The notes under the pieces: generated by a model | What the model saw: the letters and a program-made list of their open reading frames with translations, nothing else | What the model was told of the DNA's origin: nothing | The model's database searches: none | IMG/VR virus record: IMGVR_UViG_3300028374_000006 | Direction: 5' to 3' (one strand) | Source of the DNA: a virus | Lineage: Duplodnaviria; Heunggongvirae; Uroviricota; Caudoviricetes | DNA: 11,096 nucleotides | In this document: positions 2,922 to 11,096 of the stretch, piece by piece | Layout: each line of letters opens with the position of its first letter | How positions within the stretch are numbered: position 1 is the stretch's first letter | Translations under genes and position numbers: made by a program

Positions 2922-2928
2922 TAAGCCC

Positions 2929-2957
2929 TTGACACGTCCGATACGTAGTGATAGGAA
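2929..2957 (+). promoter_or_regulatory. Putative sigma70-type promoter upstream of tRNA-Ile/pyrB
   Basis: TTGACA 2929-2934, 17-bp spacer containing TG at 2949-2950, and a weak -10 TAGGAA 2952-2957 that lacks the -7 T. Confidence 0.5.
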
Positions 2958-3009
2958 TAGAGGGGTGGGGCCATTGGTTCCATCTTTAACGGACCGTAAG
3001 GGTTCGTGA

Positions 3010-3082
3010 AGGCCCGTAACTCAATTGGAAGAGTAACACCCCGATAAGGTGTAAGTTGTCGGTTCGAGTCCGACCGGGCCTA
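3010..3082 (+). tRNA. tRNA-Ile(GAT), CCA not encoded, non-canonical C33
   Basis: Acceptor AGGCCCG/CGGGCCT, D-stem ACTC/GAGT, anticodon stem ACACC/GGTGT with loop CCGATAA, T-arm GTCGG-TTCGAGT-CCGAC, discriminator A3082. Confidence 0.93.
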
Positions 3083-3114
3083 CTTTACATTTCCAACCAG
3101 ATCTCGTACCATCC

Positions 3115-3153
3115 GTCTCCGTAGCATTTCCCCAATGTACGGAGGCTTCTTTT
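3115..3153 (+). promoter_or_regulatory. Hairpin sequestering the pyrB Shine-Dalgarno, followed by a U-rich tract
   Basis: GTCTCCGTA-g-CATT-[TCCCC]-AATG-TACGGAGGC gives 13 bp (one G.U, one bulge) and contains GGAGG 3141-3145. TTCTTTT follows, then ATG 3154. Confidence 0.65.
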
Positions 3154-4116
3154 ATGTGGGACCACTTCCTTTCAGCCGAACAAATCGACCGCAAACGTCT
3201 GTGTTTACTCTTTGATAAAGTGCAGACAATGCGCATTCACCAACCTTACTTACAAGGTCGTGTTGTCGCGTGCCTTTTTTACGAGCCTTCCACCCGGACG
3301 GCCCGATCATTTGAAACAGCGGTAAAGCGCACTGGCGGCAATGTCCTGATGGTCAGTGATCTGGAATCGACGTCGGTTGCCAAGGGCGAATCTTTTGCGG
3401 ATACGATTCGTACTTTCAATCAGTACGCCGACGCAATCGTGATTCGTCACCCACGTCAAGGGGCTGCCCTTGAAGCGGCCAATGTTTCTACAGTGCCCGT
3501 GGTAAATGCGGGCGATGGGGCTAACGAGCATCCCACACAGGCACTTCTCGATGCGTACACGATAGCTGAACACCACGAACGTCTGGATGGGCTTAGAATC
3601 ACTGTGGTGGGTGATCTTAAATACGGTCGTACCGTACATTCGTTGTCGCTCCTCCTGTCCAAGTTTAATGTGGAGTTTAAGTACGTCCGCCCGGAAACGT
3701 TGAAAATGCCGTCCGGCTATCCCGAGGGCGAAACTCATACGCATCTGACGCCAGAGGTGTTGGCTGAAACCGATGTGCTTTACATGACTCGTATCCAGCG
3801 GGAACGCTTTGCTTTACGTGGTGATCCCCACCCGGAAATCTTGGTGAAGGGTTGCCACCTCACACCGGAGTTGGTGAAGCATTTGCCCGAAGAGTCTTGC
3901 ATCCTTCACCCTTTCCCACGGGTGGAGGAATTGGACCTGGCGATAGATGAGGACCCCAGAGCCTTGTATTTCAAACAGATGGCAAACGGGGTACCTATGC
4001 GTGCGGCCTTGATTAATACCCTCATACACCACGGCCAGACCCGTTCGCTTGTGGGGCATGGTTCGAAATGGTCGACTGAAGACCCGTGGGGCATCAAGGG
4101 TACGGATTCATTTTGA
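3154..4116 (+). CDS. pyrB: Aspartate carbamoyltransferase catalytic subunit
   Basis: FYEPSTRT, KGES, IVIRH, NAGDG..EHPTQALLD, GDLKYGRTVHSL, YMTRIQRER and HPFPR motifs; GGAGG SD. Confidence 0.97.
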   Translation: MWDHFLSAEQIDRKRLCLLFDKVQTMRIHQPYLQGRVVACLFYEPSTRTARSFETAVKRTGGNVLMVSDLESTSVAKGESFADTIRTFNQYADAIVIRHPRQGAALEAANVSTVPVVNAGDGANEHPTQALLDAYTIAEHHERLDGLRITVVGDLKYGRTVHSLSLLLSKFNVEFKYVRPETLKMPSGYPEGETHTHLTPEVLAETDVLYMTRIQRERFALRGDPHPEILVKGCHLTPELVKHLPEESCILHPFPRVEELDLAIDEDPRALYFKQMANGVPMRAALINTLIHHGQTRSLVGHGSKWSTEDPWGIKGTDSF

Positions 4117-5227: not shown

Positions 5228-5604
5228 TGAGTGACATTCAAGAAAAGCGCAAACTTCGTGGGCAAGAAGTTTCGGAATCCGCCGCCCGCATGATGAAGTC
5301 TTTTGTCGTGCTGGAGCAGAGCATCGAAACCGACCTCAAAGACCTGTTGGGTTCGGACATTACGCACGTGGCCGTCGAGATAGGTCTGGATACCGGGATG
5401 TACGCTAGCGTCTATGTGATATACGTGGCGGAAGATGAGCGTGAAAGGACCATCAACGCCTGTGACCGGGACGTAGAGGAATTGCTTACCCAATACGGGC
5501 TAGGCAACCGCCGTTCCATTTTTGAAAAGCGCACAAGCACGCTCTGGCGGTTCTATCATAAGAACGCGGACACCGACCGAGGACTACATCGTTATGGCGG
5601 GTAA
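5227..5604 (+). CDS. Hypothetical protein (125 aa)
   Basis: TAATG overlap at 5225-5229; GGGAG SD at 5214-5218. Confidence 0.75.
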   Translation: MSDIQEKRKLRGQEVSESAARMMKSFVVLEQSIETDLKDLLGSDITHVAVEIGLDTGMYASVYVIYVAEDERERTINACDRDVEELLTQYGLGNRRSIFEKRTSTLWRFYHKNADTDRGLHRYGG

Positions 5605-6106
5605 CGTAGCAGCCTATCCGGGGTCCTTCGATCCCTTTACGCTGGGGCACATGGATATCCTTCAGCGGGCGTCCAAGCTCTTTGAAACGGTGTATGTGGT
5701 GGTGGCGCACAATGCCAACAAAAGCCACCTTTTCAGCGGGGACCAGCGTCTTGAAATCGTTGAAAGGTCGGTAACACACCTCCGGGACCATTACCGAATG
5801 CCCGAAGAGGCGGACATTCGCGTTCGTTTGCACACTGGAATCACTTCCGATTTTTTGGATGAGCACAACGTGGATGTTGTGATCCGGGGCATTCGAAACG
5901 CTACCGATCTCGACCATGAAATCAAGCTGGAACAGTATCTTCGGCGCACGTCCACTGCGGAAACGGTTTACTTGACGCCGAGGACCCGGAACCTCAATAC
6001 TAGCTCGACGCTGGTACGGATGTTTTTGCAAACGGGGAAGTTCGAGGAAGCCGGGCGATACATGTCGACCGAGGCCCAGAAATACATCGTCGATACCCTA
6101 ACTTAA
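5594..6106 (+). CDS. coaD: Phosphopantetheine adenylyltransferase (170 aa)
   Basis: YPGSFDPFTLGH (TxGH nucleotidyltransferase motif), N..K..LFS..QRL, VIRGIR...D...E, SSTLVR. ATG 5594 follows GAGGA 5579-5583. Confidence 0.93.
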   Translation: MAGNVAAYPGSFDPFTLGHMDILQRASKLFETVYVVVAHNANKSHLFSGDQRLEIVERSVTHLRDHYRMPEEADIRVRLHTGITSDFLDEHNVDVVIRGIRNATDLDHEIKLEQYLRRTSTAETVYLTPRTRNLNTSSTLVRMFLQTGKFEEAGRYMSTEAQKYIVDTLT

Positions 6107-8350: not shown

Positions 8351-8650
8351 ATGGCTGACGCCTACACAAAGGAAGATAAGATAAGGTTCACGGCCCTTGC
8401 GGTGGTGGGCCTTTTTCTTTTTGCGTCATGGGCGACAGGATTTTTGCGCTACATTGACCGCACTCTGTTTGTGAGTGACACTGGCCCTGTATGTGTCGAA
8501 GAGCAGTATATTCAGTGCTGTAGTTTTGCGGAAGATGCAAAGCCCCTCATCAAGCAAGGCTTTGTGATGGAGGATGATATGGGCCGCGTGTGGACGCTTG
8601 AGCGGCAAGTCCCGTGTGATAAATACGGCAACCCGGCACCCCCGAACTGA
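8351..8650 (+). CDS. Hypothetical membrane-anchored protein with Cys-containing extracytoplasmic part (99 aa)
   Basis: TAAGG SD; TM helix FTALAVVGLFLFASWATGFL; four Cys downstream; TGATG overlap with the next gene. Confidence 0.75.
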   Translation: MADAYTKEDKIRFTALAVVGLFLFASWATGFLRYIDRTLFVSDTGPVCVEEQYIQCCSFAEDAKPLIKQGFVMEDDMGRVWTLERQVPCDKYGNPAPPN

Positions 8651-9060
8651 TGGAAAAGATAACGACAACGGGCGTCCTGACTTACGTGGGGGAGTGGGCG
8701 ATACTCCAGTGCGATTTGGAAACGGTCGTTTATTACCATTGGTGGTTAGAGCGTTTTGGGGTCAAGGTAAACCTTCCCGTCTGGAAATCACACGTATCAG
8801 TGGTTCGTGGTGAAGAGTTACCAAACCCGGAGGCATGGGGCGATTACCAAGACGAAGAAATTGAATTTTGGTATAGCCCTAGCGAAATTTACTGGAACGG
8901 CGAATATTGGTGGATTGACGTCTATAGTCCCCGACTGGAGGCGATTCGCCAAGAGCTAGGTCTCTCGCCCCAACCCGAATACTCATTGCACTGGACAATA
9001 GGCAAAGAGTACGAACGGCGGTGGGGATGTAAACTTGGTGTGGAGTGCTATAACCCATGA
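8650..9060 (+). CDS. 2H phosphoesterase superfamily protein
   Basis: Two H-x-S/T-hydrophobic motifs, H48-V-S-V and H114-W-T-I, with an intervening L..IR.ELGL helix. Confidence 0.75.
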   Translation: MEKITTTGVLTYVGEWAILQCDLETVVYYHWWLERFGVKVNLPVWKSHVSVVRGEELPNPEAWGDYQDEEIEFWYSPSEIYWNGEYWWIDVYSPRLEAIRQELGLSPQPEYSLHWTIGKEYERRWGCKLGVECYNP

Positions 9061-10240: not shown

Positions 10241-10600
10241 ATGGCACCAATACTCCCTACAGATTTGAATCCCGGCATTCAACGCACCGTCAAGTGGCTC
10301 AACGATGGGGGCTATCCCACCGTTGACAGCGGTGACGGAAAGACGCATGATCACGAATGTGACAGGGAAGACCCGTATGTTGTGGTGCAAGTAAGCGCCG
10401 TAGACACCTCCCCTGAATTGCTGGTAGTTTGGGCCAACAGCCTCAAAAAGGCGCTGGAAACTATTGGGGTTGAGGTAGGTCCGGTAGGTAAAGGTCCCGT
10501 GTGGCTACAGGCAAATTACGACCCCTGTAACGGGTATGCTTTCATCGATATAACCGGTATCCACGACGGTATGCTACCCGAGGATCTCACCGATGGTTGA
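10241..10600 (+). CDS. Hypothetical protein (119 aa); N-terminus weakly like the TYW3-type N-terminal motif
   Basis: LNPGIQRTVKWLNDGGYPTVDSGDG resembles D-x-x-I-x-x-(L/V)-x-x-LN-x-x-G-x-x-T-x-x-S-C-x-G (recalled pattern). Confidence 0.6.
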   Translation: MAPILPTDLNPGIQRTVKWLNDGGYPTVDSGDGKTHDHECDREDPYVVVQVSAVDTSPELLVVWANSLKKALETIGVEVGPVGKGPVWLQANYDPCNGYAFIDITGIHDGMLPEDLTDG

Positions 10601-11096
10601 TATGTCAGAAAAGTTCAAAGGATGCATCTTGGGCCTTGCCGTGGGTGACGCTGTAGGGGCACCTGTAGAGAAGGCTTCCATCGAGAATACTCGGCAGTAC
10701 CTCGAAGATCGGGTCAAGCCTAAGAATTTCGACGGCGTGGTGCGTAGCGCTTTCGAAGAATTACCTTTCGGCCACTACACCGACGACACACAGTTGGCAC
10801 GCGAGCTTATGATCTCGCTTGTGGATTGCGAGGGTAGGTTTGACCCTGCAGACTATGCGGACCGTATCCGGGTGATGTTCGAAGACGACCTGATGGTGGG
10901 TTCGGGTGGTACAACACGCCGAGCGGCCCAGCGTTTAATAAAAGGCACGCCGTGGAACCAAGCCGGTGATATGAAATCAGCGGGTAACGGTTCCGTTATG
11001 CGGGTAGCTCCGTTGGCGCTGGCCTTTAAGTCTAACCGTGATGGGGATCTCGCCTCTAAGTCCTTTTTGGATACTGCTAGGGATCTTGTTGACGCC
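10593..11096 (+). CDS. ADP-ribosylglycohydrolase (DraG/ARH family), 3'-partial; absent from the ORF track because it has no stop in the window
   Basis: Manual translation gives MVDMSEKFKGCILGLAVGDAVGAP...GHYTDDTQLA...AGNGSVMRVAP. GAGGA SD 10580-10584 precedes ATG 10593 (alternative ATG 10602). Confidence 0.93.
   Translation, partial: MVDMSEKFKGCILGLAVGDAVGAPVEKASIENTRQYLEDRVKPKNFDGVVRSAFEELPFGHYTDDTQLARELMISLVDCEGRFDPADYADRIRVMFEDDLMVGSGGTTRRAAQRLIKGTPWNQAGDMKSAGNGSVMRVAPLALAFKSNRDGDLASKSFLDTARDLVDA

Follow-up and report, generated by a model that had tools for sequence, protein, structure and literature searches.

A predicted stand-alone aspartate carbamoyltransferase gene in tRNA-rich, phage-type DNA

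The pyrB gene and its predicted product

In a stretch of 11,096 nucleotides (hereafter the window) from the IMG/VR virus record IMGVR_UViG_3300028374_000006, assigned to Caudoviricetes, an ATG-started open reading frame (ORF) at positions 3154-4116 of the + strand encodes, in 320 amino acids plus stop, the catalytic chain of aspartate carbamoyltransferase (ATCase; PyrB). This gene, pyrB, is preceded by a tRNA gene and a stem-loop, and all three lie wholly or partly within a block that recurs almost unchanged in a diverged phage, referred to as L001. The features on which the analysis turns are the following:

3154-4116, + strand: pyrB, ATCase catalytic chain, 320 aa (protein families, residue mapping, predicted fold and predicted trimer)
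3163-3570, + strand: carbamoyl-phosphate-binding domain, residues 4-139 (Pfam PF02729, residue mapping)
3586-4020, + strand: aspartate-binding (Asp) domain, residues 145-289 (Pfam PF00185, residue mapping)
4030-4113, + strand: C-terminal tail, residues 293-320 (alignment; without counterpart in the nearest cellular ATCases)
3010-3083, + strand: tRNA-Ile (GAU), 70 nt upstream of pyrB (ARAGORN)
3115-3146, + strand: stem-loop holding the GGAGG of pyrB in its 3' arm (RNA fold of 3084-3175)
2923-3407, + strand: near-exact block common to the window and L001 (1 mismatch in 485 nt)

That the gene encodes an ATCase with all catalytic motifs had been proposed in an original prediction made from the letters of the DNA, and protein families, their cut-offs and residue alignment bear this out. 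Both Pfam domains are present at full length (OTCace_N, PF02729, residues 4-139, E 1.9e-42; OTCace, PF00185, residues 145-289, E 1.7e-21), and the protein exceeds the cut-offs of the NCBIfam equivalog TIGR00670 'aspartate carbamoyltransferase' (299.1 bits, cut-off 236.95) and of NF002032 (287.7 bits, cut-off 263). Models of ornithine carbamoyltransferases (OTCases) give at most 117 bits, far under their cut-offs (the best one 117 vs 306), and those of putrescine and other carbamoyltransferases likewise stay far under theirs. The protein carries the motifs STRT, RHP, HPTQ, GDLKYGRTVHSL, YMTRIQRER and HPFPR. Residues were mapped by global alignment to the annotated PyrB record of Salmonella and are given in E. 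coli numbering where so stated. Of the E. coli residues, S52, T53, R54, T55, S80, K84, R105, H134 and Q137 are all kept, as are R167, T168, R229, Q231, R234 and P268. In phage PyrB, the residues of the carbamoyl-phosphate-binding domain are S46-T47-R48-T49, S74, K77, R98, H126 and Q129, of which S46, T47, R48, T49, R98, H126 and Q129 represent the STRT motif, R105, H134 and Q137 that characterize the carbamoyl-phosphate site. S74 and K77 belong to the 80s loop, which according to the mapping and the predicted trimer interface serves the active site of the neighboring chain. The Asp domain contributes R159, T160, R213, Q215, R218 and H252-P-F-P-R256; R159, R213, Q215 and H252-P-F-P-R256, together with K77, make up the aspartate site, whose HPxPR signature is unlike the HCLP/SMG of OTCases. 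The sole changes from E. coli among the mapped substrate-site positions are R56A and L267F. Position 56 is S in Chloroflexota-type relatives, and position 267 is F in several cellular relatives, so that the HPFPR in place of HPLPR to which the original prediction drew attention is indeed present but is not unusual.

Among solved structures, the best relatives by sequence are the ATCase of M. jannaschii (2rgw, 254.7 bits) and then that of P. abyssi, while human CAD, Arabidopsis and E. coli ATCases score 216-244 bits and B. subtilis PyrB 139 bits. The initial placement in an E. coli/archaeal/CAD-like class is right in this sense, because the best solved relatives are those ATCases and B. subtilis PyrB scores far lower; the phylogenetic trees described below, however, give no subfamily of origin. 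In all, the sequence evidence supports the view that phage PyrB, encoded in phage-type DNA, is a genuine ATCase catalytic chain and apparently a functional one.

An AlphaFold2 model of phage PyrB, built with 48 sequences in the alignment, has a mean predicted local distance difference test (pLDDT) score of 87.2, and its top Foldseek matches are ATCases with template modeling (TM) scores of 0.80-0.85. The three-copy model scores 0.91 and the best control 0.00, a pass that may reflect memory of solved ATCase trimers; among proteins of solved structure, 20 of the 30 that are pairs of one chain attain the mark used, as does 1 of the 23 that are single chains. Contact agreement between trimer runs is at least 91% and partner pLDDT at least 85. 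In the model, residues 63-92 (including S74 and K77) face residues 45-61, 254-257 and 273-280 of the neighbor, which is the canonical shared active site as far as a modeled interface can define it. ATCase trimers have been solved many times, and the pass of the trimer model therefore speaks for likeness but is not proof in its own right. The tail is modeled at pLDDT 50-63 (residues 293-320) and lies outside the confident trimer interface of the three-copy model.

Two traits set the phage proteins apart from the nearest homologues. The first is the C-terminal tail. The original prediction counted about 25 residues, and the Salmonella PyrB alignment has an extension of just that order; phage PyrB runs about 25-28 residues beyond the last core helix of the E. 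coli and Chloroflexota proteins. Across the three phage orthologues (see below) the tail measures 20-28 residues and shares the motif S-x-[WF]-[SY]-x-x-D-P-W-[GN]-[IL]-[KR] in the alignment, and 61-69 residues follow HPxP in this clade vs 43 in 105 of the 117 nearest homologues. A word-based search with residues 281-320 in 5.8 billion proteins returned only the query protein itself. The tail evolves faster than the rest (dN 0.61 vs 0.16 in the core, both against L001), a tail-only dN/dS being not computable as dS is saturated. The second trait is a compact Asp domain. The gap of about 7 residues between MP and YMTR relative to E. coli PyrB that the original prediction estimated recurs, at 7 residues, in the Salmonella PyrB alignment; against Chloroflexota-type proteins it amounts to 9 residues. 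Likewise, the distance from GDLK to YMTR is 57-58 in the phage clade and 64 in 105 of the 117 nearest homologues (minimum 60), which makes this part of phage PyrB 6-7 residues shorter than in the nearest homologues. The N-terminal extension of those homologues is also missing from the phage clade.

Relatives, phage setting and mobility of the locus

Close relatives of phage PyrB are few. Among the 5.8 billion proteins there are three close clusters only, at about 100%, 74% and 64% identity, and the remaining homologues are at most 50% identical and mostly PyrB proteins of Chloroflexota or Acidimicrobiia, the closest cellular PyrB having 47-50% identity. A search of IMG/VR by peptide patterns and an exact 39-mer found no close relatives of phage pyrB. 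The three phage proteins, 64-77% identical to each other, group with full support, and the stem of their clade is long, at 1.2-2.1 changes per site. In a site-heterogeneous IQ-TREE analysis this clade groups weakly (support 84) with Chloroflexota-type and CAD-like sequences, and a placement with the archaeal/enterobacterial clade, the subfamily in which the loci with adjacent pyrI fall, is not rejected by the approximately unbiased (AU) test (p 0.51, log-likelihood difference 0.21). Neither the trees nor the AU test single out a cellular donor or a subfamily of origin for the phage clade. A grouping of the clade with other divergent viral ATCases, obtained with FastTree (Shimodaira-Hasegawa-like support 87), was not reproduced by the site-heterogeneous IQ-TREE analysis and was discarded as long-branch attraction. 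The surroundings of the nearest cellular pyrB (locus L008), with only an amidohydrolase-family ORF and glutamine synthetase upstream, are too uninformative to use. Compared with the L001 orthologue, the overall ratio of nonsynonymous to synonymous substitution rates (dN/dS) of pyrB is 0.18, and in the diverged part of the gene (codons 94-292) dN is 0.25 with dS saturated; these values indicate purifying selection on the phage pyrB clade.

The region upstream of pyrB is also shared between relatives, and tRNA-Ile precedes the gene in the orthologous loci L001, L003 and L171 as well. The stem of the leader, of about 13 bp, lies 30 nt past tRNA-Ile and is followed by the U-rich tract CUUCUUUU and then the AUG. 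The fold of 3084-3175 has a minimum free energy of -18.5 kcal/mol (z -2.07 vs shuffles), and the hairpin sequence is identical in L001, which leaves covariation nothing to test. A simple terminator scan did not flag the hairpin; judged from its sequence, it may be a terminator, an attenuator or a translational block. The near-exact block at 2923-3407 (99.8% identity; the single mismatch at position 3016) takes in an upstream segment together with tRNA-Ile and the leader hairpin, and extends over roughly the first 85 codons of pyrB. From 3408 on mismatches are dense and nucleotide identity is about 65%; no similarity between the window and L001 is detectable outside 2923-4008. The aligned counterpart of window positions 2923-3433 is L001 9770-10280. 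Because the near-identity of 2923-3407 drops sharply from 3408, the comparison places a recombination breakpoint inside pyrB at about 3408-3433, and it indicates that tRNA-Ile and pyrB move as a cassette between differing neighborhoods. The breakpoint within the gene shows that alleles of this helper gene are swapped between related phages.

The rest of the window resembles phage DNA. It holds 3 tRNA genes, all its plausible genes lie on one strand, and many of its small ORFs belong to no family; the gene directly downstream of pyrB matches the PHROG family phrog_1383, and other PHROG matches are present. The neighbors that could be named are the following:

3-1487: C-terminal part of a type III restriction enzyme Res-like protein (RE_endonuc domain, phrog_11902)
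5522-6106: pantetheine-phosphate adenylyltransferase (PPAT)-like gene (TIGR01510, 118.9 bits, cut-off 103.3)
8650-9060: small protein that matches phrog_12204 and, weakly, the 2H phosphoesterase domain
10593-11096: ADP-ribosylglycohydrolase, running off the window end (PF03747, E 9.7e-33)

Like the nearby pyrB, the PPAT-like gene is a biosynthetic gene that stands isolated among phage ORFs. The 2H phosphoesterase-like protein and the ADP-ribosylglycohydrolase, which is 348 aa long in L003, are candidates for counter-defense functions. In a near-identical contig (L002) an N6/N4 DNA methyltransferase stands upstream of pyrB in place of the restriction enzyme, and cassette content thus varies between samples.

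The pyrB locus occurs in at least four samples (from several JGI and ENA samples), the gene being nucleotide-identical in L003 and L004 and 1 nucleotide apart in L002, and one downstream protein of the window occurs on 15 contigs in all. The source samples include JGI 3300011187, 3300011189, 3300012270 and 3300039190. These recurring contigs widen the view to about 20.6 kb with 14 tRNAs, Cpn10 and further orphan ORFs. A dense tRNA array lies at 12735-14252 of L003, some 9 kb beyond the downstream end of the window, and the 20-kb locus has 14 tRNAs in total; for one tRNA of this array ARAGORN gives a two-base anticodon that it leaves undetermined. The 74%-identical orthologue is found on an 82-kb phage-like contig with small same-strand ORFs, Thg1, two RNase T genes, guanylate kinase, CYTH and HNH, and an overlapping related contig (L172) encodes an Apyc1 homologue (anti-Pycsar) and peptide deformylase. 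About 40 kb upstream on the related contigs contain accessory genes only (guanylate kinase, CYTH, RNase T, Apyc1, peptide deformylase and tRNAs). Capsid and terminase genes were found neither in the window nor in the ~20 kb of this phage and ~40 kb of relatives that were read, and a megablast search of 50,697 phage records with the whole window gave no match. As is characteristic of an auxiliary metabolic gene (AMG), that is, a host-derived metabolic gene that sits among phage genes and is kept in related phages, pyrB has tRNA and PHROG flanks, orthologues on related phage-like contigs and the low dN/dS given above. From this gene content, phage pyrB is most likely an AMG that a large uncultivated phage carries in a tRNA-rich, accessory arm of its genome.

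It would be hardly credible, by comparison, that the DNA comes from a cell, as a genomic island or a mis-binned fragment, and that the gene is an ordinary host pyrB paralogue: the lack of capsid and terminase genes in the DNA read would fit, but the dense, small, same-strand ORFs without family, the interspersed tRNAs, the PHROG families, the Apyc1 homologue, HNH and Thg1 of the related contigs L171/L172, the lack of cellular housekeeping genes in about 60 kb, the absence here of every gene found beside pyrB in 80 cellular genomes and an identity of merely 48-50% to the closest cellular PyrB all speak against it.

Pyrimidine supply, regulation and competing explanations

In the DNA that was read, pyrB stands without partner genes. 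Scans of 20 window ORFs with Pfam and NCBIfam turned up no PyrI, dihydroorotase or CarA/CarB, and pyrI, pyrC and carAB were found neither in about 20 kb of this phage nor in about 40 kb of its relatives. A profile hidden Markov model (HMM) of PyrI, built from the PyrI genes that adjoin pyrB in archaeal and enterobacterial loci, detects PyrI at 7 of about 164 pyrB loci (four archaeal ones, Salmonella and the virus-labeled L088 and L121) and nothing in the window, in L001-L006, L171 and L172 or in the huge-phage locus L087. A pyrI encoded with pyrB, as in the class B holoenzyme (PyrB6-PyrI6), is thus missing within ~20 kb of the phage genome. When all ORFs of the phage loci were compared with all ORFs of 80 cellular pyrB neighborhoods, ATCase was common to both, plus one unrelated DUF7768 match; ATCase being the only relevant gene in common, the phage therefore appears, as far as can be seen within the DNA in view, to have taken pyrB alone. 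The original prediction had placed the gene in a class often paired with PyrI and remarked on the absence of the regulatory chain. That absence holds in the DNA in view, but it is unsurprising, because the five Chloroflexota genomes with the most similar cellular PyrB have no PyrI genome-wide (PyrI was found in 7 of 14 controls); to be without PyrI may be no more than the ancestral condition.

Phage replication is limited by the supply of nucleotides. We consider it probable that the gene encodes a functional phage ATCase (PyrB, EC 2.1.3.2) that acts as an AMG, independently of PyrI, and sustains the synthesis of uridine monophosphate (UMP) during infection. The protein would most likely form the canonical homotrimer with active sites between neighboring chains. 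Acting without a PyrI chain, it would make N-carbamoyl-aspartate from carbamoyl phosphate and aspartate of the host, keeping the committed step of de novo UMP synthesis going when host pyr expression or activity drops, and would leave the CarAB, PyrC, D, E and F steps to the host. In Lactococcus, the pyr operons are sharply down-regulated within minutes of phage infection (PMC10986495); since hosts are reported to shut their pyr operons on infection, there is a plausible selective reason for a phage pyrB. Enzyme activity, trimer formation, feedback independence and benefit to the phage are what we infer from the evidence outlined here.

Several points weigh against this proposal. ATCase activity is itself predicted from the amino acid sequence, and a single enzyme lifts flux only if ATCase is limiting in the host. 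An RBS (ribosome-binding site) inside a stable hairpin before the AUG could make expression low or conditional. Genes for PyrI or other pyr functions may lie elsewhere in the phage genome, of which ~20 kb was covered, besides ~40 kb of relatives. The three phage orthologues have 240s loops of different length, and the proposal assigns no role to the C-terminal tail. Finally, by analogy with the plant ATCase 6ypo, PyrI-less ATCases can still be feedback-inhibited. This structure, with UMP bound, is among the Foldseek structural neighbors of phage PyrB, and we regard the plant enzyme as a trimer that lacks PyrI and in which UMP acts as an inhibitor at the active site. The original prediction of an unregulated trimer that bypasses CTP/UTP feedback therefore stands only in part: no PyrI is in view, but freedom from regulation is something that we infer, because a PyrI-less plant enzyme that is UMP-inhibited means that absence of PyrI is not absence of regulation.

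From these considerations follows the alternative that fares best, an active but regulated ATCase that retunes feedback instead of bypassing it, through a pyrimidine nucleotide in the active site, its own tail or the leader hairpin. The UMP-bound plant neighbor, the tail motif kept in all three orthologues and an RBS sequestered in a hairpin ahead of a U-rich tract are consistent with it; no nucleotide-binding feature was identified in phage PyrB, however, the tail is of low confidence and faster-evolving, and the z-score of the hairpin is modest, so we regard this alternative as possible but rather unlikely. A more novel reading, which we judge unlikely, is that the three phage ATCases are a phage-adapted form in which the D-P-W tail and the trimmed Asp domain replace PyrI and expression is gated by the leader hairpin. 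The tail would then be a built-in regulatory or autoinhibitory element, or a docking peptide that binds host carbamoyl-phosphate synthetase or dihydroorotase and channels flux, and the RBS-sequestering hairpin with its U-rich tract would be a possible nucleotide-sensing attenuator before the start codon.

The same traits could also be taken to mean that the ATCase fold serves mainly as a binding module, whose tail or altered surface docks host dihydroorotase, carbamoyl-phosphate synthetase or PyrI and rewires the host complex. A tail of the clade's own combined with a shortened Asp domain, and the Trp-containing tails of gamma- and betaproteobacterial ATCases that have other partners or extensions, lend this some appeal; yet every catalytic residue, needless for pure binding, is kept under purifying selection, there is no known partner and relatives of the tail are not detectable, which makes it quite improbable. 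That pyrB is a recently captured neutral passenger with no role in infection is more doubtful again. The arm is indeed one of variable cargo, in which neighboring cassettes differ between relatives, but three orthologues at 64-77% identity keep the catalytic residues with dN/dS near 0.18, a long stem separates the clade from every sampled cellular lineage, and the tRNA-Ile-pyrB unit is kept in otherwise different neighborhoods. The reading preferred here thus remains that of a functional, PyrI-independent ATCase that probably supports UMP synthesis in the infected cell.

Comparison with known ATCases

ATCase genes in phages are rare but already known, and what the present locus adds are its lineage-specific oddities. 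In a tblastn search (E <= 1e-5) of the 50,697 phage records, nearly all matches fall in host-like records (two plainly Salmonella contigs, most others short unannotated fragments), and about three are plausible true phage copies of pyrB, namely that of a 595-kb phage and perhaps two others. The 595-kb phage, a published, uncultured huge phage (LR756511.1), encodes an ATCase with 39% identity. In IMG/VR, at least 151 stretches among 2.9 million contigs encode an ATCase; they form several separate clades, some of them on contigs of 200-500 kb and on giant-virus metagenome-assembled genomes (MAGs). According to a survey of huge phages, many of them encode de novo synthesis of purines and pyrimidines (PMC7162821), and pyrB appears in the viral AMG lists of a freshwater study (PMC12370912). 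The view that this is an uncommon AMG holds as regards its rarity in the phage records, while the huge phage, the IMG/VR stretches and the AMG lists are precedents for it. A mention of cyanophage 'pyrBI' (PMC10436341) was not used as a precedent, since tblastn at the threshold given above found no cyanophage record with a catalytic-chain homologue. No paper characterizing a phage ATCase was found in the literature search. Carriage of a gene for the committed UMP-synthesis step agrees with the idea of huge phages that partly take over nucleotide biosynthesis (PMC7162821). Phage pyrB does not overturn current understanding but is a clean, conserved and bench-testable example.

The other virus ATCases (LR756511.1, the IMG/VR clades and the giant-virus MAGs) resemble phage PyrB in being stand-alone, PyrI being adjacent only at the IMG/VR locus L121, and several viral clades are like it in that their Asp domain is compact and their C-terminal tails, which are short, contain Trp. 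They differ in having 38-51% identity to phage PyrB and in forming separate clades, with tails that are not demonstrably homologous, and no member of the present phage clade was found on IMG/VR contigs. One well-supported viral clade (IMG/VR L095, L098-L110, L116, L120, L125-L128, L136 and L149), on contigs of up to 328 kb, has a compact Asp domain and short tails that end in P-W or C-W (e.g., VPWKF), and in one of its members, L105, the ATCase gene adjoins purN and purM. The likeness of the P-W/C-W tails to the D-P-W tail may be convergent.

Among cellular enzymes, the PyrB of E. coli and Salmonella (c3 trimer, PDB 1EKX and 3CSU; class B) is 42% identical to phage PyrB over 302 residues and shares all substrate-binding residues, the fold (TM about 0.81) and the predicted trimer interface. 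In contrast, the phage protein has no PyrI in view, 7 residues fewer between MP and YMTR, a 240s loop that is 4 residues longer and a C-terminal tail of about 25 aa. E. coli E109, R113, E117, S131 and E204, which we take to be PyrI-contact residues, are not kept in phage PyrB, a lead rather than a test of PyrI binding. The highest pairwise identity to a cellular protein, 47-50%, is to Chloroflexota/Acidimicrobiia-type PyrB. Like phage PyrB, Chloroflexota-type PyrB and the CAD-type domain (human 5G1N, Arabidopsis 6YPO) have a small residue, not R, after STRT, and they share its GDLKYGRTVHS and HP[LF]PR motifs. Chloroflexota-type proteins differ in an N-terminal extension of about 20-26 aa, a first-helix region that is 6 residues longer, an Asp-domain segment that is 9 residues longer and the lack of a tail, and the phage clade is not nested with support in the Chloroflexota/Acidimicrobiia-type PyrB. 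A Thermoleophilia MAG (L058) has a pyrB frame that seems to run to 869 aa and may be a fusion with the downstream gene by ORF extension. Gamma- and betaproteobacterial ATCases of the PRK08192/PRK11891 types (L055, L062, L070, L075-L077, L079-L082 and L086) likewise have C-terminal tails, which are about 25-35 aa long and contain a conserved Trp (e.g., NWY, TWR).

With its lineage-specific tail and compact Asp domain, phage PyrB offers a small natural experiment on how an ATCase may work without PyrI. B. subtilis PyrB (2AT2, 3R7D) is more distant in sequence (139 bits vs 255 for the best solved relative) and has different Asp-domain motifs. As a class C enzyme, it is a stand-alone, unregulated catalytic trimer without a regulatory chain, and hence a functional analogue of what is proposed here for the phage protein.

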